Source: Candidatus Omnitrophota bacterium
Lineage (GTDB): Bacteria; Omnitrophota; Gorgyraeia; Tantalellales; Tantalellaceae
Direction: 5' to 3'
Assembly: GCA_014728075.1 (NCBI GenBank)
Contig: WJMG01000078.1
Location: 2,668 to 66,667, forward strand
DNA: 64,000 nucleotides
The notes beneath the pieces are model-generated. The model was not told the DNA's origin and did no database searches. It worked only from the letters and a program-made list of their open reading frames with translations. Positions 8,369-34,042 of this stretch are shown in pieces; position 1 is the first letter of the stretch; each line of letters opens with the position of its first letter. The translations under genes were made by a program, and so were the position numbers.

Positions 8369-8506
8369 TGGAAAGGCTTATCCTGTTATTAATATGATAG
8401 ATAATACTGATAATCATATTATCCATCCCCCAACGGAAAAAGTCAAAGAAGTATACATTCTCGGGCTTTTTGCGGTCTACATGGAAAGCGTTGTCCTTGA
8501 GATGAT

Positions 8507-8905
8507 CTACGAAGGCAGTTTCAGGTATTTACGGGAGGCTTCGCGAAAGCTGATCGCTTCGTTACGGTAAAGCTTGTTCTCTCTGCGGTATTGGGATATT
8601 TCCTCTATCTCTCTTTCGAAGGCCTCGGCAAAACCGGAAGGAAGGTCCAGGAACCTGGTCCCCACCCGGAACATACCGTCACGCAGCTTTTTTACATAAA
8701 CCGTAACGGCCCGGAACCGGTACATCCGGTCTTTCATGAACAGGCGCAAAACGATCTGTCCGTTTTGATCGGGGGGAAGCGCAGACAAAAGCCCGGCGCC
8801 GCCTTTACTGATATCGGCAAGAGCGAGCTCTCCCTCATCCCATTCAACGGGATAAGCCGGATCGAATCTTTTCCATCTTCTTCTTTCCTGCATAAGATAT
8901 TCCAA
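8507..8905 (-). CDS. PilZ domain (c-di-GMP binding) protein
   Basis: RRRWKRF (RxxxR) and DISKGGAGL (D/NxSxxG) motifs. Confidence 0.65.
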   Translation of the reverse strand: MEYLMQERRRWKRFDPAYPVEWDEGELALADISKGGAGLLSALPPDQNGQIVLRLFMKDRMYRFRAVTVYVKKLRDGMFRVGTRFLDLPSGFAEAFEREIEEISQYRRENKLYRNEAISFREASRKYLKLPS

Positions 8906-8971
8906 GGCTTGTACTTAGGCCTCTCCCAGCTACAAGTATATCATACGGCCGAAAAATAGTAAAGTTAGTTT

Positions 8972-8999
8972 AAAAAAAGCTAAGATTTTCGACTTAAGC
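8972..8999 (-). terminator. Rho-independent terminator after the glycosyltransferase gene (minus strand)
   Basis: Minus strand: GCTTAAGTCGAAAATCTTAGC followed by TTTTTTT. Confidence 0.5.
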
Positions 9000-9018
9000 A
9001 CACGCTTTTTCACAGGGA

Positions 9019-10074
9019 TCATTTCTTTTCCCTGTTCTCCCCGAGAACTTTTTCGAAAATATCGAAAAATTTTCCGGCGATGACCCGGGGAGAATGTTTC
9101 TCAGCAAAAGCCTCGGCAGCGGTTTTCAGGGCTTTTTGCTTTTTTTTGTCGCGCAACACCTCTATCAGCTTCTTGTTCAAAGCCGTAATATCCCTGTAGT
9201 GGACCACTTCTTTTTTCCAGGAATGGAAGAAATCCGACTGGCTCGGCACAAAGATCGGGCAACCGGTCCCCAGGGCCTGGAAAACAGTGGAAGAAACTAC
9301 CGCGTGCTGCCGGCTTCGGAATTTGTGGAAAATAGCCGCGTCCGAAGCGAACAGGTAATCATCGAATTCCGCCGTTGAAATAGCGTCGCTCTTTCTGACC
9401 ATCCTCCACTTAGTGGGAGTAAGCTCTTCCAGCATCTGGTAATCCGTTTCGATCAAGTTAAGGAGGATACAATCCCTTCTCAGCCTGGGCGGCAGCTCCC
9501 TGTAATAAGAATGGTACCCCCTGTGCCCGAACGAGTAAATGATCTTTTTTTTCTGAGGCAGTCCCAGTTTAGCCCTGGCCTCTTTTTTGCTGCCGCTCCT
9601 GACGGGGAAACACGGGAACGGCACATATTCCGCGTCCGGGTAGACGCTTTTAAGAAAATCCTGCCGATGGTCAAAGTAAACCACCTTGTCCCAGTCCAGT
9701 TTGTAGAACCAGGAATGCTCGCACATCCTGTTCTCGTGGACGACATGCACCAGCTTCATCTTCTTCTTCAATACCGGCCAGATGTTGGCCATCTTCTCGA
9801 CGGGCAACATCCCGAGGTCTTCCACTACCAGAATATCCATGTCCGTCTCGAGGAAAGGGCGCGGGTCGAGAACGGCGGTATGTGTCCTGGTCCCGAAACA
9901 CCTTATAACATAGGGTTCGTCCCCGGCCGTCATGCATTCTCCGTGAAAATCGTTCTTCACAAAAGAAAAAACCGTCACCTTGTGACCCATTCTTATAAGC
10001 TCCCTGAACACCGGTTCGGCATGCATAGCGACGCCGCTGTTGGTGTTCCAAGCAGACATTACTCCTATGTTCAT
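9019..10074 (-). CDS. Glycosyltransferase-like protein (GT-B / GT4-like C-terminal half)
   Basis: 351-aa ORF. The C-terminal VVSSTVFQALGTGCPIFVP resembles the GT4 E-x7-E region. The family assignment is tentative. Confidence 0.45.
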   Translation of the reverse strand: MNIGVMSAWNTNSGVAMHAEPVFRELIRMGHKVTVFSFVKNDFHGECMTAGDEPYVIRCFGTRTHTAVLDPRPFLETDMDILVVEDLGMLPVEKMANIWPVLKKKMKLVHVVHENRMCEHSWFYKLDWDKVVYFDHRQDFLKSVYPDAEYVPFPCFPVRSGSKKEARAKLGLPQKKKIIYSFGHRGYHSYYRELPPRLRRDCILLNLIETDYQMLEELTPTKWRMVRKSDAISTAEFDDYLFASDAAIFHKFRSRQHAVVSSTVFQALGTGCPIFVPSQSDFFHSWKKEVVHYRDITALNKKLIEVLRDKKKQKALKTAAEAFAEKHSPRVIAGKFFDIFEKVLGENREKK

Positions 10075-10180
10075 GGCCCCCCCTTTTTTCTGCGGTCCCT
10101 TTGAACTTTGAGATCACCGTCTAAAAACATCTTACGGGCATTTTACCATTAACCCCGCCAAAGCGCTAAAAGCGCGCGCC

Positions 10181-10435
10181 TTATATGTTCATTTTGACCA
10201 GCCGGGCGTTCACTCCGGAAAGAAGGTTTAGTTTCCTTTCCAGTTCTTCGTGGTCTTTATCTTCCCCCACGAGTTCGAGTATTATCAGCCCGGAATTAGA
10301 ACAATCGTCCAGAACGCCCTGGTGAAGCCCAAACCTTGTCCTTATCACGCAGCCCCATCCCGTAAGTATTTTTTGAACTTTTTCGGCGGTCTCTTTTCTT
10401 TGCTCGAGTAAAGTTATAAGCACATTCCTCTGCAT
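10181..10435 (-). CDS. TM1266-like small ACT/NikR-C-like protein (putative 'iron-only hydrogenase system regulator' family), 84 aa
   Basis: Size, hydrophobic/Gly pattern and position next to hydEFG, as for the Thermotoga TM1266 family. Assigned by recall, not by a search. Confidence 0.5.
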   Translation of the reverse strand: MQRNVLITLLEQRKETAEKVQKILTGWGCVIRTRFGLHQGVLDDCSNSGLIILELVGEDKDHEELERKLNLLSGVNARLVKMNI

Positions 10436-10551
10436 CTTCCTCCTTAATAAGCGTTTCGGCGTTTTGGTTTCGCGTCCCCCGCCGCAAGCCCGGGAATAGT
10501 TCCCTTGATCTTCTTCCGGGCCCGTTACGGCTCTACGGACACCTCGTACCG

Positions 10552-10582
10552 AAAAAGGGAGGGAGCTATACCGCTCCCTCCC
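10552..10582 (-). terminator. Perfect 10-bp stem hairpin GGGAGGGAGC-tatacc-GCTCCCTCCC with flanking A/T runs. Terminator between the REC gene and the TM1266-like gene.
   Basis: Direct reading of 10557..10582. The minus strand gives the hairpin followed by TTTTT. Confidence 0.55.
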
Positions 10583-10648
10583 TTTGTAACGGAAAGAAAA
10601 AAAGCTATGATCGAAAGGACCACAACTACAGAGAACATTCAGTCCTCC

Positions 10649-11035
10649 TTATTTTTTTATATTCTTCTCGACCTCGGAAAGAAGAACATCCGGCTTTATG
10701 GGCTTTTCAAGGACGCCTTTCACCGGAAGCCATTCGGAATCCGGCTCGAACCCGAAAGACAGGTTCATGTCCTTCCTGATGCCCGTGGTCATAAGCACCG
10801 GCGTGTCTTTTATCTCCTCGTCGCCGTGGATCTTTCTGGCGATATCGAACCCCTCTGTTTTATTTGCCATCATTACATCCAGAAGGATGAGGTCCGGTTT
10901 TTCCTCTTTAGCCTTTGAAAAGCCTTCCTCTCCGTCCGAAGCGGTTACTATGGAATAGCCCCTGGCCTCGAGAAGAGTCGTCATCGCTTCCCTGAAATCC
11001 GCGTCGTCATCCACTATAAGTATTTTCCCTGGCAT
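10649..11035 (-). CDS. Stand-alone response-regulator receiver (REC/CheY-like) domain protein
   Basis: KILIVDDDADFRE...DLILLDVMM...K motifs. The start was moved to the ATG after RBS AAGGAGG. Confidence 0.8.
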   Translation of the reverse strand: MPGKILIVDDDADFREAMTTLLEARGYSIVTASDGEEGFSKAKEEKPDLILLDVMMANKTEGFDIARKIHGDEEIKDTPVLMTTGIRKDMNLSFGFEPDSEWLPVKGVLEKPIKPDVLLSEVEKNIKK

Positions 11036-12263
11036 TTTTCCTCCTTCTGTTTTTCTGTTCCCGGGCCCTATCACCAAAGGGGGTTATAACCCTTTCCAGT
11101 ATTCCCGACATGTACGATATAATTATACCATAATTAGTGATAGGAACCTTTTGTCTTTTAGCTCTTGCCACCCTGGCCAGCAGTTCTCTGCGGGTAACCA
11201 TACATCCTCCGCAGCTTATGACAAGGGAATACGGAGAAAGGTCCTCCGGAAATTCGCCTCCGGCCGTAACATCGAAAACAAGGTCCCTGCCGGTATACTC
11301 CCTTAACCAGGAAGGTATCTTGCTTCTGCCTATATCCTCCGGTTGAACATGATGTGTGCAGGCCTCAGCGATAAGGACCTCGTCTCCGTCTTGCAGGCGC
11401 TTAACGGCACCTGCGCCCTTTATGAACTCTGCCAGGTCGCCTTTATGCCTGGCGAAAACCACCGAAAAAGAGGTCAACGGGACATTCTCCGGTACTTTAT
11501 CCTTAACCTCCTCGAAGACCTGGGAATCCGTTATGACCAGCGCCGGGGACCTTTCAAGAGAATCGAGAGATTCCGTCAGTCCACTGTCTTTGACGACAAC
11601 CGCTATGCCCCCGGCGTCAAGGACTTCCCTCAACACCTGGACCTGGGGCAGGATCAGCCTGCCCTGCGGCATGGCCCCGTCGATCGGGCATACCAGAACA
11701 ACCGTATCCCCGGCCTTTACTATATCTTTTACCAGCGGGACGGGTGCCCAGTCCCTGGGAGCAAGCCGTATTATCTGTTCTTTCAATTGCTCTATACCTG
11801 CGCCGGTCACCGAACTCACTTTCACGCAAACCCTTCCGTTCTCTTCCCTCAGCCTGTCATCCTCGATGTTTTCTTCAAGATCGCTCTTATTCCATACTAT
11901 CAAAAAAGGCACTCCCTGCTCGCCGAAAGCGGCTATGATTTCCTCTTCGAATTTCCCGGGCCGGGTCCCCGGCTCCATAACTATCAAACCTACATCGGTC
12001 TTTCTAAGGACCCGCCGGGTCTTCAGCACCCTCTCGCGGCCCAGCTCCCCCTCGTCGTCGAGCCCTGCCGTATCTATTAAAACACAGGGTCCTATAGGCA
12101 GGATCTCCATGGCCTTGTAAACAGGATCTGTCGTAGTTCCCGCGCAAGAAGAGACTATTGCCAGGTCCTGTCCCGTAAGCGCGTTTATCAGGCTGGACTT
12201 GCCCGCGTTCCTTCTGCCGAATATCCCTATATGGAGCCTGTTACTTGCCGGTGTTGTATACAT
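11007..12263 (-). CDS. hydF: [FeFe]-hydrogenase maturation GTPase HydF
   Basis: G1 motif GRRNAGKSSLINAL. C-terminal CxH...CxxC (CTHH ... SCGGC) Fe-S motif. Confidence 0.85.
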   Translation of the reverse strand: MYTTPASNRLHIGIFGRRNAGKSSLINALTGQDLAIVSSCAGTTTDPVYKAMEILPIGPCVLIDTAGLDDEGELGRERVLKTRRVLRKTDVGLIVMEPGTRPGKFEEEIIAAFGEQGVPFLIVWNKSDLEENIEDDRLREENGRVCVKVSSVTGAGIEQLKEQIIRLAPRDWAPVPLVKDIVKAGDTVVLVCPIDGAMPQGRLILPQVQVLREVLDAGGIAVVVKDSGLTESLDSLERSPALVITDSQVFEEVKDKVPENVPLTSFSVVFARHKGDLAEFIKGAGAVKRLQDGDEVLIAEACTHHVQPEDIGRSKIPSWLREYTGRDLVFDVTAGGEFPEDLSPYSLVISCGGCMVTRRELLARVARAKRQKVPITNYGIIISYMSGILERVITPFGDRAREQKNRRRKNARENTYSG

Positions 12264-13320
12264 TTTCGTCCCTCCTTCCGGGAAGAAGGGAATCTCCCCG
12301 GGACATGTCCGCGTACCTCCCCATTTCCGGCAGCTTTTCTTTTACTTGTTCGATAAAGTCCTCCGGGCGGGACCCCCTTATTTCCGGCGCCGGATAAATT
12401 TCATATGATCTCGCGTATCGGGGGGGAGTAAAATCGGCCATTATAACATTCGCTCCTCCGGCAAGGGCTCTCATCCGGGGTTCAAGGCTTTCCGCCCCAA
12501 GGGCCGTAGTTGCCGGTATATGCGCTAAAGGAGAAAGTATCCTCATCACGGAGATCGCGCTTAGGGCCTCTCGGCGGGATCCCGCGGGCTCCAGACCCAG
12601 GGCCGTTTCCCCGTGTGGAACAAAAGGCCCCACGGCTACCATATCGAGTGCAAGCTTTCCGAGAAAGACAAGATCCTCCGCCAGACTCTCCTTTGTCTGG
12701 CCCTTAAGCCCTACTATTATACCGCTGCCTGTCTGGAACCCGAGGGCCCGGAGCGTTTCCAGGCATCGTACGCGGTTGTCAAAGGACATACCGGGATGCA
12801 GGGCTTCGTAGATCCTTCTGTTCGAGGTCTCTATTTTAAGAAGGTACCTGTCGGCGCCGGCGTCCCGTAAGACCCGGTATTCTCTCTCTGTTTTTTCGCC
12901 TATAGATACGGTTACCGCGACATCGTATCGATATTTTATTTCCCGGATGACCTCTGCCAGTGACCGGCAATCGTCTTGTCCGTCCTGTCCCGACTGAAGC
13001 ACTATTGTACGCACCCCGGCCCGGAAAACCCTTCCGGCGGCCTCCAGTATCTCTTCAGGCGACATCCTGTATCTTTCGAGCCCGCCCTCGGGACGGTTAA
13101 GCCCGCAATAAGAACAAGCGCCGTCGCAAAAATTCGAAAAGTTTATTATTCCCCTGAACAAGACCCCTTCGCCTATAAACCGCGCCCTGAGAGCATCGGC
13201 TTCTTCTGTTATTCCCGTTTCGGCGGACGGAAGGGACAGGATCTCACGGACCGCCGGCATGTCCTCTCCCCGGAAGGATCTTATCTTTTCCGGAAGACCG
13301 GACCGCCTAAACGAACTCAT
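12241..13320 (-). CDS. hydE: [FeFe]-hydrogenase maturase HydE (radical SAM)
   Basis: CDGACSYC (Cx3Cx2C) and BioB-like architecture, placed between hydG and hydF. The start is ambiguous (13320 or 13260). Confidence 0.8.
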   Translation of the reverse strand: MSSFRRSGLPEKIRSFRGEDMPAVREILSLPSAETGITEEADALRARFIGEGVLFRGIINFSNFCDGACSYCGLNRPEGGLERYRMSPEEILEAAGRVFRAGVRTIVLQSGQDGQDDCRSLAEVIREIKYRYDVAVTVSIGEKTEREYRVLRDAGADRYLLKIETSNRRIYEALHPGMSFDNRVRCLETLRALGFQTGSGIIVGLKGQTKESLAEDLVFLGKLALDMVAVGPFVPHGETALGLEPAGSRREALSAISVMRILSPLAHIPATTALGAESLEPRMRALAGGANVIMADFTPPRYARSYEIYPAPEIRGSRPEDFIEQVKEKLPEMGRYADMSRGDSLLPGRRDENVYNTGK

Positions 13321-14683
13321 CCCTTTTCCCCTTCGCCAGGTCCAAAAGTATTTTTTCCAGCGTTTCTTTCTCTTCGGCTCCCAGACCCGCGGATAGCTTT
13401 TCCACAAGAGCGTACCCTTTTGCCCTCACATCATCCGAAGCGTAGTCGTCAAGGTATTCTTTCAGTGTAATAAGGGCATTTATCCTGCATTTGCCTTTTA
13501 TGGTGCCCGGGCGGGCCATTTCCATGAACGCCTCCCCTGTGCGACGGGACCTGTAGCAGGCGGTACAAAAACTCGGAACGGCGCCTTTTCCGATCAAAGC
13601 GCCGACTACCTGGTCCAGGCTCCGGTGGTCATTGAGCGAGAACTGACCGCATGCCTGGCCCGGTTCAGCGTATCCTCCGGGTGAAGTCCGGGAAGACGCG
13701 CTTATCTGGGACACTCCCAGATCAAAAAGAGCGTCTCTCATCTCCGGAGACTCCCGGGTAGAGAGAATGATCCCCGTGTAAGGAACGGCCAGCCGGAGAA
13801 CGGCTACCAGAAGCATGAACTCCCTGTCGGACATCTCGAAAGGCGCGGCCTCCGAAAGATCAACGCCTTTCGCCGGCTCTACCCTGGGAACAGAGACAGT
13901 ATGCGGCCCTATATTAAATTTTTTCTCCAGATATTCAACATGGGTCAGGAGGCCAAGAGCCTCGAACCGGTGATCATACAATCCGAAAAGGGCCCCTATG
14001 CCCACATCGTCTATCCCCGCCTCGAAAGCCCTGTCTATGGCCGCGAGTCTCTCGTCGGGGTCGCTTTTTGGCCCGCGGGGGTGTACTTTCCTATATGTCC
14101 TCTCATGATATGTTTCCTGGAAAAGCTGGTAAGTGCCTATGCCGGACGCTTTCAGGCGCTTGAACCCTTCCTTTTCCAGAGGGGCACAGTTAACATTTAT
14201 CCGCCTTATCCTGTTCTTACCGTCGGTCTGTGAGTAAATTGTCCCTATACTTTCGGCAAAATAGCCGGCGTCGTCCGGCGATCCGCTTTCCGAAGCGACC
14301 AGAAGTACGCGTTTATGGCCCATTTTCAACAGGCTGCGCGCCTCCGCGGCTATCTCCGGCTGCGCAAGCTTTTTCCTGGGGATCAGTTCATTGCCTTCTT
14401 TGAACGCGCAATAAGAACAGGCGTTAGCGCAGATATTGTTTATGTACAGAGGAGCGAAAAGGACTACCCTGTCACCGTATATCTTTCTTTTTACCTCGGA
14501 AGCGGCCGCGAGGATAGCTTCTGTCTCCCCGGGGCCCTCGGCGGCAAGAAGGACCGCGGCGTCCTCGATAGAAAGCCGGTTCAGGCCGGCACTTTTCTCA
14601 AGGACTTCCATTATTCTTGACCGCCCGGCCTTTCTGCCGGCTTTCAGCGCTTCATGTATTTTTTCTTCATTGATCAGTTTCAT
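13307..14683 (-). CDS. hydG: [FeFe]-hydrogenase maturase HydG (radical SAM tyrosine lyase)
   Basis: CANACSYC and C-terminal CTACYRx22C motifs. ThiH-like. The start was set at MKLINEEKI. Confidence 0.85.
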   Translation of the reverse strand: MKLINEEKIHEALKAGRKAGRSRIMEVLEKSAGLNRLSIEDAAVLLAAEGPGETEAILAAASEVKRKIYGDRVVLFAPLYINNICANACSYCAFKEGNELIPRKKLAQPEIAAEARSLLKMGHKRVLLVASESGSPDDAGYFAESIGTIYSQTDGKNRIRRINVNCAPLEKEGFKRLKASGIGTYQLFQETYHERTYRKVHPRGPKSDPDERLAAIDRAFEAGIDDVGIGALFGLYDHRFEALGLLTHVEYLEKKFNIGPHTVSVPRVEPAKGVDLSEAAPFEMSDREFMLLVAVLRLAVPYTGIILSTRESPEMRDALFDLGVSQISASSRTSPGGYAEPGQACGQFSLNDHRSLDQVVGALIGKGAVPSFCTACYRSRRTGEAFMEMARPGTIKGKCRINALITLKEYLDDYASDDVRAKGYALVEKLSAGLGAEEKETLEKILLDLAKGKRDEFV

Positions 14684-14703
14684 CCTCACCCCGCCAGCGA
14701 TAT

Positions 14704-15195
14704 TCACCCGCCCCTGTTGCGGTACTCTTTTATAAGTTCCGCGGTCCTTTCGGCGTCGAGATCACCGTGTATCTTCTCGTTCACCATTATCACCGGGGCC
14801 AGGCCGCAGGCGCCGAGGCACCTCGCTTCCTGCAAAGTGAACATTTTGTCTTCGGTGGTCTGTCCCACTTCAACCCCCAGCTCCTTTTTAAGGGTTTCCA
14901 GGACCTTTCCGGCTCCCTTTACATAACACGCGGTCCCCATGCATACCGATACGATATATTTCCCCACCGGTTCAAGGTTGAAATAATGGTAAAAGGTAGC
15001 CACTCCCCAGATATGCGCCGTGGGGATGTTCATGTAATGAGCTATTTCGTCCATTACTTCTCTGGGCAAATATCCGTATATCTCCTGGGCTTTGTGCAGA
15101 ATAGCTATTAGCTGGGATTCCGAATGTTCTTTTTCCCGGCACTCGTCCATATATTGTCTGAGCCGCTCCGATCTTTCGTCCTTAACCTTTGTCAT
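14704..15195 (-). CDS. hydC: NuoE-like [2Fe-2S] subunit of a multimeric [FeFe]-hydrogenase (HydC/HndA)
   Basis: CMGTACYV...CLGACGLAP thioredoxin-like 2Fe-2S motif. RBS ACGGAGGG. Confidence 0.85.
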   Translation of the reverse strand: MTKVKDERSERLRQYMDECREKEHSESQLIAILHKAQEIYGYLPREVMDEIAHYMNIPTAHIWGVATFYHYFNLEPVGKYIVSVCMGTACYVKGAGKVLETLKKELGVEVGQTTEDKMFTLQEARCLGACGLAPVIMVNEKIHGDLDAERTAELIKEYRNRGG

Positions 15196-15205
15196 TTTCC
15201 CTCCG

Positions 15206-16978
15206 TTATCTGGATTTTGATAGCTCAGGTATTATTCCTCTCGGCTCTTTCGGCGCATAATGCGTGTGAAGGTACTTATGCGCCGCGGACCCGAGAGGCC
15301 TACCGAGGAACTCCTTGTAAAGCCTCTGAACATCCCTGTTCTCGTGGCTCCGCCTGATGGTCCTGTTCCTGTCAAGCCCGTAAAGGGCTTCCGCCCTTTT
15401 CTTGAGCACATCTTCGTCAAGAGGGATCGAGTTGGACCCGGCGTAAGGCTGACCCCCGCCCCCTATACACCCGCCCGGGCAACCCATTATCTCGATAAAA
15501 TGATACCGGTCGGGATCCTTGCGGACTATGTCGAGAAGTTCCGCGGCGTTACCCAGCCCGTGCGCGACCGCTACTCGTATCTCTTTGCCGTCCATAGTTA
15601 TGCTTCCCTCTTTCACGGACTTGAACCCCCGTATATCCTTGAGCTCTATATCGAGAAGGGTCTCTCCCGTATAAAGCTCGTAAGCGGTGCGTATTGCCGC
15701 TTCCATGACCCCCCCGGTAACACCGAAGATCGCTCCGGCTCCGGAAGAAACTCCGAGAGGGGCGTCGAACTGTTCCGGTTTGATATTATAAAAATCTATA
15801 CCGGAAGATTTTATCATCCACGCGACTTCCCTGGTCGTTACGACAAGGTCGGTGGGGTCCATGCCCTCTACCCGGAGCTCGGGCCTCTGTGCCTCGTATT
15901 TTTTGGCCGTACAGCACATCACGGCAACGGAAAAGATGTTTTCCGGAGACAGGCCCTGTTTATCGGCGAAGTATGTCTTAAGCATTGACCCCATCATCGA
16001 CATGGGGGACTTACAGGTAGAGACATTTTCTATAAGGTCCGGATAGAATTGTTCGAGACACTTCATCCAGGCGCTTGAACAGGAAGTTATCATAGGCAGC
16101 TTGCCTTTGCCCTGCACTCTCTCCAGGAACTCGTTGGCTTCCTCCATTATCGTGAGGTCGGCCGCGAACTGCGTGTCAAAAACATGATCGAACCCCAGAC
16201 GCCTCAACGCCGCGGCCATTTCCCCCTCCATGGCCTTGCCCGGAGGGAACCCGAAAGCCTCTCCTATAGCGGCCCTTACCGAAGGCGCCACCTGCACGAC
16301 CTTCACCAGTTTATCGTCGTTAAGTTTTTCGAACAGTTCCTGCGTATAGTTCTTCTCAACGAACGAAGCGGTAGGGCACACATTTATGCACTGGCCGCAG
16401 GAAGTGCAGACGCTTTCGCTGAAAGGCATATTATACGCCGGCATTACCACCGTATTGAACCCCCTGTGGGCATATCTCAACGCATTGACCTTCTGGACCT
16501 CCTCGCACATGCGCACGCACCTGCCACAAAGGATACATTTGTCCGGGTCCCTGATGACCGCCGGGGAGGAAAGATCTTTTTCGTAATGCTTTTTCTCACC
16601 CTCAAAGTGCCGTTTTCTTATGCCCATGGCGTAAGCAAGCCGCTGAAGTTCGCATATACCGTCCCTTTCGCAGGTATGGCAATCTTCGGGATGGTTGTCC
16701 AGTATCAGCTCCACTATATCCCTCCTGGCCTGTCTCAGGTCACCGGTATTGGTCTTTATGTCCATGCCTTCTTCCACGGGATGCGAACAGGAAGCCACGA
16801 AATTGCGCATGCCCTCTACTTCCACTATACAAACCCGGCACGCCCCTTCTATGGAAAGTTTGGGATGATAGCAAAGACGCGGTATCTTGAACCCCAGGCC
16901 GTCCAGGGCCTGCATTATGGTCTGCCCTTTTTCAACCTTGTAGTCCCTGTTATTGACGGTTATGTTTATCGTTTTCAT
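15206..16978 (-). CDS. hydA: [FeFe]-hydrogenase catalytic subunit HydA (M3 architecture: 2Fe-2S, His-ligated 4Fe-4S, 2x4Fe-4S, H-cluster domain) with non-canonical L1/L2 motifs
   Basis: N-terminal Cys motifs. L1 = PMITSCSSAW, L2 = VMCCTAKKYE, L3 = EIMGCPGGCIGGGGQP. RBS AAGGAGAGG. Confidence 0.9.
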   Translation of the reverse strand: MKTINITVNNRDYKVEKGQTIMQALDGLGFKIPRLCYHPKLSIEGACRVCIVEVEGMRNFVASCSHPVEEGMDIKTNTGDLRQARRDIVELILDNHPEDCHTCERDGICELQRLAYAMGIRKRHFEGEKKHYEKDLSSPAVIRDPDKCILCGRCVRMCEEVQKVNALRYAHRGFNTVVMPAYNMPFSESVCTSCGQCINVCPTASFVEKNYTQELFEKLNDDKLVKVVQVAPSVRAAIGEAFGFPPGKAMEGEMAAALRRLGFDHVFDTQFAADLTIMEEANEFLERVQGKGKLPMITSCSSAWMKCLEQFYPDLIENVSTCKSPMSMMGSMLKTYFADKQGLSPENIFSVAVMCCTAKKYEAQRPELRVEGMDPTDLVVTTREVAWMIKSSGIDFYNIKPEQFDAPLGVSSGAGAIFGVTGGVMEAAIRTAYELYTGETLLDIELKDIRGFKSVKEGSITMDGKEIRVAVAHGLGNAAELLDIVRKDPDRYHFIEIMGCPGGCIGGGGQPYAGSNSIPLDEDVLKKRAEALYGLDRNRTIRRSHENRDVQRLYKEFLGRPLGSAAHKYLHTHYAPKEPRGIIPELSKSR

Positions 16979-16990
16979 CTGATCCTCTCC

Positions 16991-18811
16991 TTAGGCTGTT
17001 TTTACGGCATTGAACTTACAGGCGGCCAGGCACTGCCCGCATTTTATGCATTTTTCTATGTCAATGGCGTGGCGTTCACGGGGGGAACCCGTTACCGCTC
17101 CGGCCGGGCAGACTTTCTTACACGCGGTACAACCGACACAATCCTCGGTAATATAATATTCCAGAAGGTTCCGGCATTCCCCCGAGCGGCACTTTTTTTC
17201 TTTTATGTGCTCCTCATATTCCTCGCGGAAATTCTTTATCGTGCTCAGCACTGGATTCGGCGCCGACTGGCCCAATCCGCACAGTGACGCTTTTTTGATC
17301 GTTTTCCCGAGGCGTTCCAGCTTCTCTATGTCCCCTTCCATTCCGCGCCCTTCGGTTATCCTGGTAAGGATCTCGAGCATTCTTTTGGTGCCTTCCCTGC
17401 ACGGCGTACATTTCCCGCAGGACTCGTTCTGGGTAAATTCAAGAAAAAACCTCGCTATACCGACCATACAGGAATCTTCGTCTATCACGATCATCCCCCC
17501 GGAACCCATTATCGAACCGGCTCTCGCCAGAGACTCGTAATCGATCGGGGTGTCGAGGTACTCTTCGGGAAGACATCCTCCCGAGGGCCCCCCCGTCTGC
17601 ACCGCCTTGAACTTTTTATCTTCCGGTATTCCGCCCCCGATGTCGAAAATGATCTCGCGCAGGGTAGTCCCCATGGGCACTTCGACCAGACCGGTATTAC
17701 GCACTTTGCCCGCGACAGCGAATACCTTGGTCCCTTTGCTTTTCTCCGTCCCCACCGAGCTGAACCAGTCGGCGCCGTCCATTATTATCACGGGTATGTT
17801 CGCCCATGTCTCTACATTGTTTATCAGGGTCGGTTCACCGAAAAGCCCCGAAACCGACGGGAAAGGCGGCCTCGGCCTGGGCATACCCCTTGATCCCTCT
17901 ATCGAATGAATGAGCGCCGTCTCTTCCCCGCAGACGAACGCGCCCGCCCCGAGCTTTATTTCGACATCAAAAGAAAAATCCGATCCGAGGATATTCTCGC
18001 CGATAATGCCGTGTTCCCTGGCGTCCTTGATCGCTTTTTCCAGACGCCTGATGGCCAGCGGATACTCAGCCCTTATGTAAATTATCCCCCTGGAAGCCCC
18101 CACGGCGTACCCGCCTATTATTATGCCTTCCAGGACCGTATGGGGATCTCCTTCAATGGCGCTTCTGTCCATGAAAGCGCCCGGATCGCCTTCGTCCGCG
18201 TTACATATAACATATTTCTTTTCACCTGCGGCCTTTCTGGTGAAATCCCACTTCAACCCCGTGGGGAACCCCGCGCCTCCCCTGCCCCGTAATCCCGATC
18301 TTTTGACTTCCTCCACTACCTCTTCGGGACTCATGCTGGAAAGCACCCTGGCCAGGGCCTCGTATCCTCTCAAGGCCAGGTAGTCATCAATACTTTCAGG
18401 GTCTATTATCCCGCAGTTCCGCAGAGCTATTCTCATCTGTTTTCCGAAAAAACCCACATCTCCGAAAACCCTGAAGAACTTGTTATAAAGGTGGTTTTCC
18501 TCTATTACCAGACGAGCTACGGGCTTGCCTTTGATTATATGTTCTTCAAGTATCTCCTCCAGGTCCGCTTTCCCGACATTCCCGTAGATAGTGTACCCGG
18601 GATTGACTATCATTACAGGCCCCCTGGCGCACATTCCCAGGCACCCGGACAGATTGACCTTTACATCCCTGTAGCTAAGCCCTTTTTCCCGGAATCCGTC
18701 CTTTAAAGCGCTCAAAAGCTCCTTTGACCCCTTGTGCATGCATCCGGGCCCGTCGCAGAGGGTTATGACCCTCGCGGCGACCACATCGTCTCGTTTATAC
18801 TTCTCAGCCAT
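16991..18811 (-). CDS. hydB: NuoF-like flavoprotein subunit (HydB/HndC) with N-terminal 2Fe-2S thioredoxin-like domain, FMN/NADH-binding core and C-terminal 2x[4Fe-4S]
   Basis: GRGGAGFPTGLKW. CGKCTPCREG. CVGCTACKKVCP and CIKCGQCLAAC. Confidence 0.9.
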   Translation of the reverse strand: MAEKYKRDDVVAARVITLCDGPGCMHKGSKELLSALKDGFREKGLSYRDVKVNLSGCLGMCARGPVMIVNPGYTIYGNVGKADLEEILEEHIIKGKPVARLVIEENHLYNKFFRVFGDVGFFGKQMRIALRNCGIIDPESIDDYLALRGYEALARVLSSMSPEEVVEEVKRSGLRGRGGAGFPTGLKWDFTRKAAGEKKYVICNADEGDPGAFMDRSAIEGDPHTVLEGIIIGGYAVGASRGIIYIRAEYPLAIRRLEKAIKDAREHGIIGENILGSDFSFDVEIKLGAGAFVCGEETALIHSIEGSRGMPRPRPPFPSVSGLFGEPTLINNVETWANIPVIIMDGADWFSSVGTEKSKGTKVFAVAGKVRNTGLVEVPMGTTLREIIFDIGGGIPEDKKFKAVQTGGPSGGCLPEEYLDTPIDYESLARAGSIMGSGGMIVIDEDSCMVGIARFFLEFTQNESCGKCTPCREGTKRMLEILTRITEGRGMEGDIEKLERLGKTIKKASLCGLGQSAPNPVLSTIKNFREEYEEHIKEKKCRSGECRNLLEYYITEDCVGCTACKKVCPAGAVTGSPRERHAIDIEKCIKCGQCLAACKFNAVKTA

Positions 18812-18821
18812 TTTTTCCTCT

Positions 18822-19178
18822 CTATTTTATGACCCACTCTTCGATTATTTCTCCCTTTTTCAAATGCCTTTCGATTATCTCCCTGGCCCTTTCGGGGTCC
18901 ACCTTTCCGTATTTCACGGGTATTTTTCCTTCTTCTATTACTTCGACCGTAGGCTCCAGGTTGCACCTTCCGGCACATCCTTTCTGGCTCAGGTAAACAT
19001 CGGTAAGCCCCTTTCTTACGGCTTCCTCGAATATCTGCATTATTTCTTTCGATCCTGCGGCGATCTCGCAGGTAGCCATGCCTACATAGACCCGTTTGGT
19101 CGAAAGATAACCTTTGCCTATTATCCGGTTGACCGCTTCAGCCCTTTTCTTTTTAATGTTGTCTATCGGTTTTACCAC
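18822..19178 (-). CDS. HndB/NuoE-like thioredoxin-fold ferredoxin domain protein (118 aa, only three Cys), GTG start
   Basis: Strong RBS AGGAGG before the GTG. Cys at 37, 68 and 72. Confidence 0.55.
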   Translation of the reverse strand: MVKPIDNIKKKRAEAVNRIIGKGYLSTKRVYVGMATCEIAAGSKEIMQIFEEAVRKGLTDVYLSQKGCAGRCNLEPTVEVIEEGKIPVKYGKVDPERAREIIERHLKKGEIIEEWVIK

Positions 19179-19189
19179 TTTTCCTCCTG

Positions 19190-21013
19190 CTATATTGTGA
19201 AAACAAAAGTATTACCCTTATCTCCCGGAAAAACATCGATGCTTCCTCCGTGGCTCTCTATTATTTCCCTTGTTATGAAAAGCCCCAGGCCTGTGCCTTT
19301 CTCCTTCTTTACCTCCTCTCCCTCCAGCCGTGAAAACCTCTTGAACAGTCTTTTCTTTTCCTGCGGGGTTATGGGCCTTCCGTCGTTATACACGCTGACC
19401 TCCGCCCCGCCTTCCGGACGGCGTACGGCCTTCACCTGTATCTTACCGTTTTTTTTCCCGTATTTTATTGCGTTGCTTATAAGATTGTTGGCCACTACCC
19501 TCATAAGGTCTTCATCGGCTTCAACCTCCATTGCTTCCGGGATATCTATTGCTACTTCTATTTCTTTAGCGCTTATCCTCTTGGCGAAAGTATCCACCGA
19601 AACATCAAAAATATCCTCTTTGATCTTCAGCGGTACCTTGTCCACCTTTATCTCCCCTTTCTCTATCCTGCTGAGGCTGAGGAAATTCTTAACGGTCGAG
19701 TCGAGATGGTCCAGGTTCCTTCCTATGGAATCCAGCGCCTTCTGCTGCTTGAAGTTAACCATGCCCAGAAAACCGTCCCGGACGGAATAAACATTCAGGA
19801 TGGCCGAGGACAGGATGCCCTTGAGCTCATGCGAAACGAAGCCGATCAGGTCAAGATAGCTTTTATTCAGGGCTTCCAGTTTGCGATTGGAAACTTTTAG
19901 CTCTCCGTAGCTCTCGCTGAGTTTCCTGGCCATATTGTTGAAAGAAGCCGATAGCTTGTTCAGTTCGGTTATAGCGGTATGCGGCCTGACCCGGCACTTC
20001 AGGTCGCCCGCGGATATCTTCTCCGTCGCTTTCAACATATCCTTGACCGGCCGCGAGATCACACCCGCCAGTAGAACAGAAAGAAATATGGCCATGACCA
20101 CGGCTCCCGAGACTATGAGCATGTACAACAGCAAAGAGTTCCTTGCTATGTCATGAAAGGGCTTCTCGAGAACACCAACATACAATATACCTATTATTGC
20201 GCCTTCAGGGTTCCGTATGGGCTCGTAGCCGGTAATATACCAGTCGTTCACCACGAAAGCCCTGTCCAGCCAGGTGCGCCCGTTCTTTACAACATTGTCA
20301 TAAACCTCTTCTGAAACCCTTGTCCCTATAGCCCGTTCGCCTTCGGCATTAAGCACATTTGTAGCTACCCTTACATCATCCTGAAAGATCGTGACCGTTC
20401 CCACCGGCCGGTCCTCGTATATCTTTTCTTCGAAAACCAGGTCCCTTATCTTGTCTACCAGTTCGTAATCCCGGTTGATTATCCTGCCCCCGACCATTAC
20501 CTGTTCTATCTTTCCTTCAGTATCCTCTACGGGTACGGCGTATTCTTTGACCATCAGGTCCTTAAGCACTTTCCTGGAACTCGGGCGCGCCTTTGGGGTA
20601 TACAGGATCCTTATCCCCTCCCCGGGCTCGATCCCCGGCTTAGGCCCTGCCCCGGCCAGTATGCGGACGCCTCCCGAAGGTAAGCCTTCAGCGGCTTTAC
20701 GAGCAAGAAGATTGGCGCTTTTCCCCGCTTCTTCGGCCGTAAGGCTGTAAACATAGTGCAGTTCCGCTTTGCTTTTTATCCATACGGGATCGGCGCCGGG
20801 GTCTACGAGGCTGAGCGCCTGCCCTATGTCCTTTATCTCCTCGTTAAAAACACTGGCGGCCGCCTTCAGGTCGTCGGTCACCTGGTCCTGGGCACGGTCG
20901 ATGACATTACTTTTTATCAGGTAAAAGCCCAGTGTCCCGGCCGATACCCCGAGAAAAAGTATCACCGTCATAAAAGACAGCAATATTGTCGTCTTAAGCG
21001 TCCGTGTCCTCAT
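19190..21013 (-). CDS. Sensor histidine kinase with a ~260-aa extracytoplasmic dCache-like domain (TM-dCache-TM-HAMP-HisKA-HATPase_c) embedded in the hydrogenase operon
   Basis: Two TM segments, HAMP (ISAGDLKCRV) and H-box VSHELKG. The periplasmic domain has a Cache-like pattern. Confidence 0.8.
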   Translation of the reverse strand: MRTRTLKTTILLSFMTVILFLGVSAGTLGFYLIKSNVIDRAQDQVTDDLKAAASVFNEEIKDIGQALSLVDPGADPVWIKSKAELHYVYSLTAEEAGKSANLLARKAAEGLPSGGVRILAGAGPKPGIEPGEGIRILYTPKARPSSRKVLKDLMVKEYAVPVEDTEGKIEQVMVGGRIINRDYELVDKIRDLVFEEKIYEDRPVGTVTIFQDDVRVATNVLNAEGERAIGTRVSEEVYDNVVKNGRTWLDRAFVVNDWYITGYEPIRNPEGAIIGILYVGVLEKPFHDIARNSLLLYMLIVSGAVVMAIFLSVLLAGVISRPVKDMLKATEKISAGDLKCRVRPHTAITELNKLSASFNNMARKLSESYGELKVSNRKLEALNKSYLDLIGFVSHELKGILSSAILNVYSVRDGFLGMVNFKQQKALDSIGRNLDHLDSTVKNFLSLSRIEKGEIKVDKVPLKIKEDIFDVSVDTFAKRISAKEIEVAIDIPEAMEVEADEDLMRVVANNLISNAIKYGKKNGKIQVKAVRRPEGGAEVSVYNDGRPITPQEKKRLFKRFSRLEGEEVKKEKGTGLGLFITREIIESHGGSIDVFPGDKGNTFVFTI

Positions 21014-21635
21014 TGATCACGCCTTTTTTGTCCGTGTTTATGAAATAAATTATGTTTTCCAGCTCCAGGCCCAGATTCACATTGTTTATAACGGTATCCT
21101 CCTCGCCCTTGAGATTAATGGGCGCGAAGTTGAGGATCCCTTTTATCCCGGCTGATACCATTATTTCAAGCACCTGCTGAGCAGCTATATCCGGCACGGC
21201 TATTATGCCCACCCTTATTCCGTGCTCTTTTACATACCCCCTCATCTTATCCAGCTGAAGCACGGGTATCTTTTCATCCGCATTGTACTTGGCGGGATCT
21301 ATATCAAATCCCGCTACTATCCTTATGTTCTCCTTTTCAAATCCCCGGTAATTCATCATGGCGGTGCCGATATGTCCGGTCCCGACCACGATAACATCCT
21401 GGACCTTGTCCTTGCCGAGTATCTTATTAAGCTTTTCAACCAGTTCGGCGACCGTATACCCTCCTCTTTTGTTTCCTGATATACCGAACATCGAAAAATC
21501 TTTTCTTACCTGGGCGGGGGTAACCCCCACCGCATCCGCGAGATTATCCGAAAAGACCTTTACAAAGCCCATTTTCTTTAGTCTATATAACGCGTTTTTA
21601 TATTTGGATAACCGTATTATCGTTCTTTTGCTCAT
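20994..21635 (-). CDS. rex: Redox-sensing transcriptional repressor Rex
   Basis: N-terminal winged helix (TIIRLSKYKNALYRL) and Rossmann GTGHIG NADH-binding motif. Confidence 0.85.
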   Translation of the reverse strand: MSKRTIIRLSKYKNALYRLKKMGFVKVFSDNLADAVGVTPAQVRKDFSMFGISGNKRGGYTVAELVEKLNKILGKDKVQDVIVVGTGHIGTAMMNYRGFEKENIRIVAGFDIDPAKYNADEKIPVLQLDKMRGYVKEHGIRVGIIAVPDIAAQQVLEIMVSAGIKGILNFAPINLKGEEDTVINNVNLGLELENIIYFINTDKKGVINEDTDA

Positions 21636-21669
21636 ATTATTGTTCCTTTATTCACATTATTCTGCATAA

Positions 21670-21697
21670 ATTTTACCATTTATCAGCAGAAAGTCAA
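21670..21697 (-). promoter_or_regulatory. Sigma70-like promoter for the rex-hydrogenase operon (minus strand: -35 TTGACT at 21692-21697, 16-nt spacer, -10 TAAAAT at 21670-21675)
   Basis: Direct reading of the reverse complement. Confidence 0.5.
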
Positions 21698-21702
21698 CCT
21701 TT

Positions 21703-21720
21703 TTGTGATTTTTTTCACAT
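21703..21720. promoter_or_regulatory. Rex operator-like inverted repeat TTGTGA-tttttt-TCACAT (TGTGA-N6-TCACA, as in the Streptomyces ROP-type consensus)
   Basis: Direct reading. It lies immediately upstream of the -35 of the rex promoter. Confidence 0.55.
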
Positions 21721-21727
21721 TTTTTAT

Positions 21728-21760
21728 CCAGAAAAAGGCACTCCCGTGCCTTTTTTCTGG
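21728..21760. terminator. Bidirectional rho-independent terminator (ccag-aaaaa-GGCAC-tccc-GTGCC-tttttt-ctgg) downstream of the MFS transporter gene
   Basis: Direct reading. There are T-runs on both strands. Confidence 0.65.
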
Positions 21761-21765
21761 ATCAT

Positions 21766-23139
21766 TTAAAGCTCTCTCGGAGGCTTTCCCGCTCTCCAGT
21801 GCTCTTCGATATCCTCCAGTTTATGCCCTTTGGTCTCCGGAACAAAGAAAAAACAAAAAAGCCATCCCGCTATCCCCAATCCCGAGTACAACCAGAATGT
21901 CCCGGCCTTGCCCAGCTTTTCTATAAGCGTAAGAAAGGTCATCGCTATAACCAGGTTAAAAGCCCAGTTGCACATGGTGCTCAAGCTCATCGCTCTTCCC
22001 CTTATCTTGAGAGGAAAGACTTCGGCGATTATCAGCCAGGCAATGGGCCCGAGACTAACGGCAAAAGACGCTATATAAAGCATGAGGCTGCCTACGGCTA
22101 CCCACTTCAGCGCCCCCGAAAGACTGGCCATGTTGAAGGCGAAACCGAGAGCCCCGAGGCTAATGACCATTCCAGCAAGGCCCCAGAAAAGAAGCTTGCG
22201 TCTTCCCACTCTGTCGACCAGTTTTATGGCTACCACGGTCATAAGAACATTAACTATCCCTACTCCCATCGTGGCAAGTATCGCTACCTGCGCCGAACCG
22301 AACCCCGCGAACCCGAATATTGTAGGAGCGTAATATATTACCGTATTTATGCCCGTTATCTGCTGAAAGAACATTATCCCTATCCCTATTACCAGCGGCA
22401 TCCTTAGCCAGGGCTGAAAAAGCTCTTTCCATCCGCCGCTTTCTTCCGTAAGGGATCTGCGGATATCGGATATTTCCTCTTCTATGTTATCGTCCTTTTG
22501 TCTGATCTTTCCCAGAACTTCCCTTGCCCTGTCAACGAGGGAACGGCTCATCAGCCATCTGGGGCTGGCCGGGAGAAAGGATATACCTATACCCAGCAGG
22601 ATCGCCGGCACGGCTCCTACCGCGAACATCCATCGCCATTCATGCCTGCCGGCGAATAAGTAGTCGATAAGATAGGAAAGGACAATGCCGCAGGTAATGG
22701 CCAGCTGGTTGAGGGAAACCAGAGCCCCCCGTATGTTCGGAGGGGACACCTCGGAGATATACAGCGGCGCGGCGAAAGAGGCTATCCCGATCGCTATCCC
22801 TATGACGACCCGTCCCGCCACCAGAAACCCCACCCCGGGCGCCAGGGCGGTCGCCAGAGAGCCCAGCACGAAGATCACGGCCGTGGCGATTATTATTTTT
22901 TTACGGCCGAACATGTCCGAGAGCTGTCCGCTCAAAGCGGCACCCGCTATGGCTCCCACCAGAACGGCGCTCACCACGACCTCTTCCGAAGCCGAAGTAA
23001 GGGCAAACTGGTCCTTCAGAAAAAGCACGGCTCCGGAGATAACCCCCGTATCGTACCCGAAAAGCAATCCCGCCAGCGCCGCGACTCCCGCGGCGACATA
23101 AACGAACAGGTTCTCTTTACCTCCCGGCTTCTGCTCCAT
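21766..23139 (-). CDS. MFS transporter, sugar-porter family
   Basis: 12 TM helices. GRVVIGIAIG and PETKG motifs. Confidence 0.8.
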   Translation of the reverse strand: MEQKPGGKENLFVYVAAGVAALAGLLFGYDTGVISGAVLFLKDQFALTSASEEVVVSAVLVGAIAGAALSGQLSDMFGRKKIIIATAVIFVLGSLATALAPGVGFLVAGRVVIGIAIGIASFAAPLYISEVSPPNIRGALVSLNQLAITCGIVLSYLIDYLFAGRHEWRWMFAVGAVPAILLGIGISFLPASPRWLMSRSLVDRAREVLGKIRQKDDNIEEEISDIRRSLTEESGGWKELFQPWLRMPLVIGIGIMFFQQITGINTVIYYAPTIFGFAGFGSAQVAILATMGVGIVNVLMTVVAIKLVDRVGRRKLLFWGLAGMVISLGALGFAFNMASLSGALKWVAVGSLMLYIASFAVSLGPIAWLIIAEVFPLKIRGRAMSLSTMCNWAFNLVIAMTFLTLIEKLGKAGTFWLYSGLGIAGWLFCFFFVPETKGHKLEDIEEHWRAGKPPREL

Positions 23140-28369: not shown

Positions 28370-29050
28370 TCAGATCTTTTTATCCAGGCGTTCTTTGTGA
28401 TGCCTTACTACAGTGGCTCTTACCATGTAGATGACATCCTCCGAAATGTAGGTGGCGTGATCGCAGATCCTTTCAAGGTGCCTCGCTATCAGCAGGAGGG
28501 CGACCGCCCTTGTCGCGCTTGAGGGGTCTTTTTCAAGGAAGTCGTGCAAAAGTTCGCTCTGTACCGCGTTCCGGATCTTGTTGGCCTCGGGATCGGCCAG
28601 GATGACCTCTTTTGCTAGGGACTCGTCCCTGTTAACATAGGAATCGATGGCGCTCTTCACCATCTTCCGGGCGATCTCGGAAAGTTTGGGGATATCTATC
28701 AGCGGCTTAAGGGGCTGCTGCCCGGAAAGGGCCTTCACTCTCTGTGAAATGTTCACCGTCAGGTCCGCTATTCTCTCAAGTTCCGCGTTTATTTTCATGC
28801 CCGTTGTTATCTGTCTCAGGTCTATGGCCATGGGCTGGCGCAGAGCCAGGAGATCGATGAACTTCTCCTCGATGAGATTCTCCATCTCGTCTATCCTGGT
28901 ATCGTCCTGTATAACCTTTTCAGCGAGGTCTTCGTCCCTGTTCTTTAATGCCTCCACGGATTTGAATATAGCTTCTTCCACCATCGCCGCCATTTTCAAA
29001 AGGTCGGTATTCACGCTCTTTATTTCGTCATCAAAATGTCTTTCTACCAT
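28370..29050 (-). CDS. phoU: Phosphate signalling complex protein PhoU
   Basis: Two PhoU repeats with conserved E/D-x3-D motifs. RBS GAGGTG. Confidence 0.85.
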   Translation of the reverse strand: MVERHFDDEIKSVNTDLLKMAAMVEEAIFKSVEALKNRDEDLAEKVIQDDTRIDEMENLIEEKFIDLLALRQPMAIDLRQITTGMKINAELERIADLTVNISQRVKALSGQQPLKPLIDIPKLSEIARKMVKSAIDSYVNRDESLAKEVILADPEANKIRNAVQSELLHDFLEKDPSSATRAVALLLIARHLERICDHATYISEDVIYMVRATVVRHHKERLDKKI

Positions 29051-29085
29051 TTCTGCACCTCGTCTTTGGAGCTCTCCGCTCCGGA

Positions 29086-29943: not shown

Positions 29944-29944
29944 G

Positions 29945-31674: not shown

Positions 31675-31717
31675 GTCGTATCCACGGCCTCCTTATATTA
31701 TTTATTCGTTCCCGGGA

Positions 31718-32599: not shown

Positions 32600-32677
32600 C
32601 GGTCAGCTCCTTGATTCATTTTGTTATACAAATTTATTGTTACGGTTCTGTGAACTTCCGGTTACGAGTTAGTTAAC

Positions 32678-34030: not shown

Positions 34031-34042
34031 TTTTATTCCTCC

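Follow-up and report, generated by a model that had tools for sequence, protein, structure and literature searches.

What role does a periplasmic sensor kinase play in a hydrogenase operon, and through what does it act if its only response regulator is a bare receiver domain? The question is raised by a 64,000-nucleotide stretch of a Candidatus Omnitrophota genome (contig WJMG01000078.1, positions 2,668 to 66,667; the whole stretch is referred to below as the window), in which the genes of a transmembrane histidine kinase (19190..21013) and of a stand-alone receiver (10649..11035) lie on either side of the genes for an [FeFe] hydrogenase and its maturases. Features are on the minus strand unless stated otherwise. 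The answer favored here, with a probability of roughly 55%, is that the two proteins form a cognate two-component module within a Rex-controlled, NADH-linked [FeFe]-hydrogenase operon of the HydABC type, whereby a cue from outside the cell and the NADH/NAD+ state inside it converge on the hydrogenase.

The evidence that carries this interpretation is largely comparative. An alignment of the sensor domain was scanned against one genome per species, in which at least 598 genomes matched, and the best 80 loci were compared; these derive from Omnitrophota, Planctomycetota, Fibrobacterota, Spirochaetota, Verrucomicrobiota, Raymondbacteria, Thermodesulfobacteriota, Acidobacteriota, Aminicenantes and others. 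Homologs of the kinase number in the thousands, and the top 120 listed are full-length, with identities of 50-57%. Ortholog loci were defined by a kinase at least 41% identical to that of the window (n = 48), and 29 of them offer at least 9 kb between the kinase start and the end of the locus. Among these 29 loci, Rex, the [FeFe] catalytic subunit HydA and an ortholog of the receiver (55-67% identical, 126-134 amino acids (aa)) are each present in 27, and the conserved pairing spans Omnitrophota, Planctomycetota, Fibrobacterota, Spirochaetota, Verrucomicrobiota, Margulisbacteria and others. In three loci examined for context (Anaerobaca lacustris, a 7.5-Mb genome and a 2-Mb genome) the same gene order was observed, namely rex, kinase, a 118-aa protein, HydB, HydA, further hyd genes, HydC and the stand-alone receiver. 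Two look-ups that started from the receiver led again to hydrogenase operons, and in a Fibrobacteria genome (L035) and a Desulfatiglans genome (L026) the kinase gene directly adjoins that of the receiver. The trio of Rex, kinase and receiver travels with the HydABC genes across many phyla, and kinase and receiver very likely belong together as a cognate pair with a functional link to the hydrogenase. An earlier interpretation made from the letters of the window alone (the sequence-only reading) had staked its proposal beforehand on the conservation of the pairing with the hydrogenase, which is borne out by these counts; its description of the receiver as an orphan is to be replaced, as the protein is a conserved partner of this very kinase.

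The operon is read in the order rex, histidine kinase, hydD-like, hydB, hydA, hydC, hydG, hydE, hydF and receiver, with adjoining genes overlapping or separated by gaps of no more than 12 nucleotides (nt). A sigma70-like promoter (TTGACT-16-TAAAAT with an extended TG; 21670..21697) is situated just 5' of rex, and its score of 10/12 places it among the two top promoter-like sites in 8300-22000. At the other end, a terminator-like hairpin of 10 pairs followed by a T run (10603..10627) lies 22 nt past the stop codon of the receiver. Because of the close packing, the promoter 5' of rex and the hairpin 3' of the receiver, the kinase and the receiver are the second and the last genes, respectively, of one tightly packed 11-gene unit.

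The first gene of this unit (20994..21635) encodes the NADH/NAD+ redox-sensing repressor Rex. The protein scores 239.5 bits against the NCBIfam Rex equivalog NF003996 (cut-off 138) and matches Put_DNA-bind_N and CoA_binding in Pfam, and its identity as Rex is founded on the family score above the cut-off together with a predicted operator in the promoter of its own gene. Two boxes read from the sequence enclose that promoter. Rex operator 1, aTGTGAAAAAAATCACAA (21703..21720), ends 5 nt upstream of the -35 hexamer and differs from TTGTGAA-N4-TTCACAA at two positions, and a candidate second box, TGTGAATAAAGGAACA (21641..21656), is weaker, overlaps the ribosome-binding region of rex and shows two mismatches to TGTGA-N6-TCACA. 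In 15 related loci a counterpart of the second box lies at about -25 to -40. Overall, 32 of 35 ortholog loci have a TGTGA-N6-TCACA box in the 250 nt upstream of rex, compared to 7.3% of background windows; the N6 spacing was set by a count of palindromes, and a scan with a spacing of eight (TGTGA-N8-TCACA) matched almost nothing. Repression of the operon by Rex via both boxes is considered likely. The stop codon of rex and the start of the kinase overlap by 20 nt, and translational coupling of this kind (an overlap or a gap of up to 17 nt) is seen in 33 of 36 loci. The rex gene and its operators were missed by the sequence-only reading, and the claim that the signal acts other than through direct transcription control overlooks this repressor, whose gene is coupled to that of the kinase and whose operators are conserved. 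In one further locus (L038, near position 9853), where no rex adjoins the kinase ortholog, a perfect Rex box, TGTGAATTTTTTCACA, lies 49 nt upstream of the kinase gene; the operon there may belong to the Rex regulon even if rex is encoded elsewhere in the genome.

The kinase itself comprises 607 aa, arranged as a first transmembrane (TM) helix, a bimodular periplasmic Cache sensor, a second TM helix, HAMP, a dimerization and histidine phosphotransfer domain and a HATPase domain. Hydropathy places the TM segments at residues ~8-33 and 293-319, enclosing a sensor of about 260 aa, and Pfam assigns HAMP to residues 314-366, HisKA to 389-453 (25.9 bits, just under the cut-off of 26.9) and HATPase_c to 500-606 (E = 4e-22); kinase models of NCBIfam align over residues 380-607. 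The phospho-acceptor His395 is invariant across 45 orthologs, and this H-box histidine together with HATPase_c identifies a HisKA-type kinase. The boundaries and domain order agree exactly with those first proposed for this gene. No PAS, hydrogenase or H-cluster domain was detected in the kinase by Pfam, and the operon holds no second hydrogenase-like gene, which upholds the view of an input unlike that of HoxJ, HupUV and HydS, whose sensors are of the PAS or hydrogenase-like type. A comparison of H-boxes, covering the kinase genes of 84 loci (19817-19831 in the window), revealed H-E-L-K-G, with Gly at H+4, in the ortholog class, versus H-E-I-N-N-P in distant paralogs coupled to NtrC-type regulators. 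The bifunctional phosphatase motif E/D-x-x-T/N directly after the histidine was not found in the kinase or in the sampled sequences of the ortholog class. HisKA phosphatase activity needs Thr or Asn at H+4, and because H-E-L-K-G provides neither, the kinase may lack such activity, a property that would suit a phosphate sink or a receiver with fast turnover.

The sensor consists of two parts of unequal conservation. The AlphaFold2 model of residues 34-296, computed with 33 sequences (predicted local distance difference test (pLDDT) 90, predicted template modeling score (pTM) 0.88), displays a helix of 35 residues and, after it, two alpha/beta modules. The long stalk helix and the extra alpha/beta module, as delimited by the predicted secondary structure, occupy residues 34-175 (20489..20914) and are less conserved; the second module, residues 176-291 (20141..20488), adjoins the second TM helix, carries the putative ligand pocket and is far more conserved among orthologs. 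In Pfam the latter is an sCache_3_3 domain (residues 179-291, 117.7 bits, cut-off 28.8), overlapped by an incomplete hit to Cache_3-Cache_2 (residues 162-295, profile positions 61-196 of 299). The family score, the two flanking TM helices, the predicted fold and the Cache structures retrieved by Foldseek place the domain in the Cache superfamily, so that the Cache domain once suspected from the letters is present on structural modeling. The more specific label of dCache applies only loosely: the predicted fold is bimodular, and Foldseek ranks dCache chemoreceptor domains next after the structures 8PY0 and 8PY1 (template modeling scores of 0.42-0.46 to dCache structures), but none of the Pfam dCache_1, dCache_2 and dCache_3 models matches the kinase, and the conserved ligand-type module is the second in its sequence, beside the membrane, whereas ligand binding by a dCache domain is expected in the first, membrane-distal module.

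The nearest solved relatives suggest what the pocket may bind. Profile and single-sequence searches of 177,635 distinct PDB sequences yielded no sequence relatives of the sensor other than 8PY1 and 8PY0, both of which are formate-bound sCache domains (Monteagudo-Cascales et al. 2025, PMC11804620). In such pockets formate is held by a salt bridge from an Arg (R142 in PacF, R118 in 8PY1 and R111 in 8PY0) and by hydrogen bonds from a Thr (T105/T100) and a Tyr (Y167/Y160), PacF contributes the pocket threonines T145 and T158, and a Phe (F182/F175) forms a floor that excludes acetate (PMC11804620). With the chain numbering of 8PY0 and 8PY1 verified at three residues per structure before mapping, R215 of the kinase aligns to the salt-bridge Arg, Y263 to the hydrogen-bonding Tyr, and T218 and T231 to T145 and T158 of PacF; none of the four varies among the 85 orthologs and paralogs compared. 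T206, T208, N219 and R227 are likewise invariant in all 85. The loci were retrieved by peptide patterns over residues 205-213 and 252-259, and invariance within those stretches, including that of T206 and T208, is partly by construction; R215, T218, T231, Y263 and Y278 fall outside them. Since the formate sensors are the sole solved sequence relatives, the pocket residues are invariant, and formate is the only ligand listed for sCache_3_3 and for Cache_3-Cache_2 in the one review checked, formate or a similarly small anion is the leading candidate ligand. The organic-acid signal guessed at by the sequence-only reading is thereby sharpened.

At the far end of the operon, the receiver comprises 128 aa from its ATG, with Response_reg as the only Pfam match; it is bare of any DNA-binding output, as had been proposed, and is indeed the only receiver of the operon, a separate PhoB-like regulator being encoded elsewhere in the window. 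Its phospho-acceptor set is complete (D9/D10, D53, T83/T84 and K111), and the top 120 homologs listed are all single-domain proteins, nearly all of 126-131 aa. The AlphaFold2 model (pLDDT 85) has a canonical fold apart from helix alpha4, with template modeling scores of 0.78-0.83 to RpaA, RR468, DivK and Spo0F. Where alpha4 is expected, residues 85-104 form a loop, and this loop is the most conserved stretch of the protein, with the consensus GIRKxMNLPFGFEPDxxWLPV. Receivers usually pass their signal on through the alpha4-beta5-alpha5 face, and because the conserved loop of the model sits on that face, a dedicated docking partner is likely. Assignment to the DVU0259/DivK-like family (NCBIfam NF045717) was rejected, as the score was 71.6 bits against a cut-off of 160.

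Beyond the orthologs, the sensor family extends to distant paralogs, about 30% identical overall, which have the same sensor core. Their kinase genes come after those for NuoE, NuoF, a polyferredoxin, MvhD and the small and large subunits of an [NiFe] hydrogenase, and the gene of an NtrC-type sigma54 activator follows directly; among 35 paralog loci, [NiFe] genes were found in 17 and an NtrC-type regulator in 18, and none of the 35 has Rex or the stand-alone receiver. Because orthologs lie beside [FeFe] genes and paralogs beside NAD-linked [NiFe] genes, the sensor family as a whole is hydrogenase-associated, with two output wirings: kinase and NtrC/sigma54 activator beside [NiFe] hydrogenases, and Rex, kinase and alpha4-less receiver around [FeFe] HydABC. 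The NtrC-type activators of the paralog branch argue that the role of the family is control of hydrogenase expression. Four paralog loci (L047 at 653-1925, L052 at 1155-2440, L057 and L064) begin with genes for a PHP-domain protein and a HATPase-only protein of about 180 aa, upstream of NuoE, NuoF and the [NiFe] genes. Thermoanaerobacter-type hyd operons include a kinase-like ATPase, which the HATPase-only protein recalls.

In the mechanism proposed here, the ligand of the sCache_3_3 module would be a very small anion in the periplasm, most likely formate, a diffusible partner of H2 in anaerobic electron flow. Binding would alter autophosphorylation at His395, the phosphate would move from His395 to Asp53 of the receiver, and the phosphorylated receiver would act by contact through the loop that replaces alpha4. 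The kinase, informed of the outside cue, and Rex, informed of the NADH/NAD+ state inside, would together set the level or the activity of the hydrogenase.

The first of these steps can also be read otherwise, since the same architecture and the same link to the hydrogenase could serve another ligand, such as bicarbonate, nitrite, acetate, lactate, a metal or, through the first module, a periplasmic protein. Several observations weigh in that direction and against formate itself. The sensor is only 21-23% identical to the formate sensors 8PY0 and 8PY1; the Phe that limits the size of their pocket aligns to Tyr278, invariant in 85 of 85, so that the floor characteristic of formate sensors is replaced; of the three direct formate contacts, that of Thr105 in 8PY1 lies outside the alignable region in both profile and single-sequence alignments, with T206 and T208, invariant as noted, as candidates for its position; and the extra module upstream of the sCache core is missing from the formate sensors. 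Furthermore, formate-type Cache domains were found almost exclusively in chemoreceptors in the 2025 survey (PMC11804620). What speaks for formate over the other ligands is the very evidence set out above, namely the identity of the sole solved relatives, the ligand reported for both Pfam families and the invariant Arg, Tyr and pocket Thr pair. Specific binding of formate is thus proposed only tentatively, at somewhat short of even odds, and a ligand other than formate appears rather unlikely, though a real possibility.

The last steps of the mechanism are open to a different objection: the receiver may not be the final output at all, and may instead act as a sink for phosphate or shuttle it along a longer phosphorelay toward an unlinked DNA-binding regulator. 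An output domain is absent from the receiver, no partner for it is universal in cis (Rex and the Hyd subunits occur in most loci, not in all), and the H-box without Thr or Asn at H+4, which suggests that signaling may be unusual, may leave a deficit in phosphatase activity that a sink would offset. An orphan HAMP-PAS kinase is also encoded 3.3 kb downstream in the window. Against this, the loci show no conserved histidine phosphotransfer (Hpt) protein and no conserved second receiver, and the strongly conserved loop in place of alpha4 points to a specific docking partner; a sink or relay is accordingly judged improbable, and action of the receiver by protein contact rather than in either of those roles is somewhat favored. 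More radically, the kinase and receiver might merely be co-located with hydrogenase genes and control something unrelated. In this respect the exceptions are informative: in the Fibrobacteria genome L035 the unit is reduced to rex, kinase and receiver, with no hydrogenase within 10 kb, and at locus L072 the kinase is present with no hydrogenase. The recurrence of the operon in 27 of 29 ortholog loci over several phyla, the gene overlaps or gaps of at most 12 nt, and the fact that other family branches adjoin [NiFe] hydrogenases or HypDE render such coincidence very improbable. Two of these branches are exemplified by Desulfatiglans L026, with HypD, HypE, kinase and receiver, and by a deltaproteobacterial locus (L025), in which receiver and kinase lie amid [NiFe] hydrogenase subunits and a maturation protease, beside a molybdopterin oxidoreductase with a twin-arginine translocation (TAT) signal. 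In L025 a second kinase, a cytoplasmic GAF-HisKA-HATPase protein (7940-9892), is encoded directly upstream of the Cache kinase, and the two may share one stand-alone receiver. Rex is not universal either, rex and a Rex box being absent at locus L085; the operon of Margulisbacteria, without rex or a Rex box, consists of kinase, HydD-like protein, HydB, HydA, HydC and receiver.

If the cognate module in the Rex-controlled operon is accepted, the target of its receiver is the next question, and gene context does not single one out; an unlinked factor could serve, as could Rex, the TM1266-like protein or a subunit of the hydrogenase or its maturases. Rex is possible but doubtful as the target, a subunit of the hydrogenase or one of its maturases slightly more doubtful, and the TM1266-like protein the least probable of the three. 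Rex was not adopted as a universal target, given that L085, L051, L025 and L026 have kinase and receiver without an adjacent rex or Rex box. The TM1266-like protein, of the CPF_0552 family (10181..10435; NF052672, 96.4 bits, cut-off 85), had been named as a partner by the sequence-only reading, and modest support for this was obtained. Its gene lies downstream of the receiver after a gap of 213 nt, and it is directly 3' of the receiver in all six related loci that have the gene (L003, L006, L007, L013, L036 and L040) as well as in the window, the pair being found before, inside or after hydGEF depending on the genome; the ortholog in L003 matches the TM1266-like family of Pfam. The adjacency is thus perfect, but the gene occurs in just these six related loci and is absent from most, which counts against it as the general target.

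The genes enclosed by kinase and receiver encode a hydrogenase of the HydABC type by sequence, as HydA with its H-cluster domain is accompanied by NuoF-like and NuoE-like subunits. Directly after the kinase lies the gene of the 118-aa thioredoxin-like [2Fe-2S] protein, similar to HydD/HndB (18822..19178), with weak matches to 2Fe-2S_thioredx and ferredoxin models; its orthologs, 73-86% identical, hold the same position in related loci. It is followed by HydB, the NuoF-like NADH/FMN subunit (16991..18811; Pfam and NCBIfam), by the catalytic subunit HydA (15206..16978; Fe_hyd_lg_C and Fe_hyd_SSU), which scores 837.8 bits against the NCBIfam NADH-dependent [FeFe] hydrogenase NF040763 (cut-off 765), and by HydC, the NuoE-like subunit (14704..15195; Pfam and NCBIfam). 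The set of three H-cluster maturase genes (11007..14707) comprises HydG (13307-14707; Radical_SAM plus BATS), HydE (12241-13407 as the longest open reading frame; Radical_SAM) and HydF (11007-12263; HydF_dimer and HydF_tetramer), the first two of which we take to be HydG and HydE from established knowledge of the maturases. The longest frame of HydE has a TTG start and overlaps hydG by 100 nt, and its true start is probably an internal ATG near 13320.

Downstream of the TM1266-like gene the window encodes a glycosyltransferase-like protein (9019-10074) and a PilZ-domain protein (8507-8905), neither of which is kept in related loci, so that both are placed outside the system. Further along are an ABC_sub_bind periplasmic protein (7364-8368) and, directly after it, the orphan kinase of HAMP-PAS-HisKA-HATPase type (5433-7367), which comes without a regulator and might conceivably feed the stand-alone receiver as well. 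On the other side of the operon is a pst/phoU-like phosphate cluster (28370-36965), named from N-terminal sequences, in which an OmpR-type PhoB-like regulator (36273-36965) is encoded with a HAMP-PAS kinase (34499-36271); together they make up the one complete two-component pair that the window has besides that of the operon. Between 45153 and 58245, gyrA, gyrB, dnaN and dnaA are encoded on the minus strand, and next come yidC-like, parA and parB genes in the plus orientation, as judged from N-terminal sequences only. Because the GC skew switches sign near 52 kb, the window probably spans the chromosomal replication origin.

When fermenters and syntrophs make H2 is poorly understood beyond a few models, and the known sensors of hydrogenase systems read intracellular H2 or NADH. 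In Omnitrophota, Planctomycetota and further anaerobes, most of them uncultivated, a conserved sensor in the periplasm that is wired to HydABC would represent another kind of input, and if its ligand is formate, both of the main interspecies electron carriers would be linked at the regulatory level. The alpha4-less receiver, for its part, presents a defined surface with which a regulator target of a new kind could be sought. A broader proposal, which is speculative and on balance unlikely in its full form, is that a large and so far undescribed family of periplasmic kinases, found in at least 598 species genomes, serves NAD(H)-linked hydrogenases of the cytoplasm, [NiFe] and [FeFe] alike, through its two wirings and reads extracellular formate as a proxy for the H2 or reductant pressure of the community; in the Rex wiring, the phosphorylated receiver would act on Rex or on the enzyme and so unite redox information from outside and inside the cell.

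Searches of an incomplete full-text collection returned no paper on a Cache kinase, on this receiver or on their pairing in hydrogenase operons, nor on rex coupled to a sensor kinase in an operon that ends with such a receiver, and the system is best placed by comparison with those that share some of its parts. The formate Cache chemoreceptors (PacF, Atu0526, 8PY0 and 8PY1; PMC11804620) belong to the same Pfam families as the sensor of the kinase, have the Arg, the Tyr and the two pocket Thr in common with it, and are likewise periplasmic between two TM helices. Yet their output is that of a chemoreceptor, their pocket has a Phe floor and they have no added module, whereas the sensor here, at 21-23% identity, has a Tyr floor and a module before the sCache core, is joined to a histidine kinase and is encoded in a hydrogenase operon.

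Among stand-alone receivers, RR468, DivK, CheY, Spo0F and Sma0114 resemble that of the window in consisting of a single receiver domain with a complete phospho-acceptor set, their output being exerted by contact or phosphorelay. The window receiver differs from them in the conserved loop MNLPFGFEPDxxWLPV in place of alpha4 and in its hydrogenase-specific context; to our knowledge, alpha4 loss is otherwise limited to receivers of the Sma0114 type, which carry a different motif. In Firmicutes and Thermotogae, Rex represses fermentation and hydrogenase operons, and these share with the present operon the repressor, the TGTGA-N6-TCACA operators at the promoter and an NADH-linked [FeFe] hydrogenase as the target. 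Here, however, rex is coupled to a transmembrane kinase, and a receiver is added at the operon end.

The established H2-sensing systems, HoxBC-HoxJ-HoxA, HupUV-HupT-HupR and HydS/Hfs, sense H2 in the cytoplasm via a hydrogenase-like protein or a PAS domain. They too comprise dedicated signaling genes that accompany a hydrogenase, and their NtrC-type regulators are of the kind seen in the paralog branch, yet the kinase described here employs a periplasmic Cache domain and has no PAS or hydrogenase-like part. In E. coli, the soluble cytoplasmic activator FhlA binds formate, which switches on the hydrogenase genes of Hyd-3. The logic would be the same if formate is the ligand, and the paralog branch also uses a sigma54 activator; in contrast to FhlA, sensing here would take place in the periplasm and be followed by phosphotransfer, and the enzymes at issue are NAD-linked HydABC or group-3-like hydrogenases rather than Hyd-3. 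The two-component system, the Cache sensor, Rex and HydABC are thus all known as separate parts, and it is their combination in one operon that seems new.

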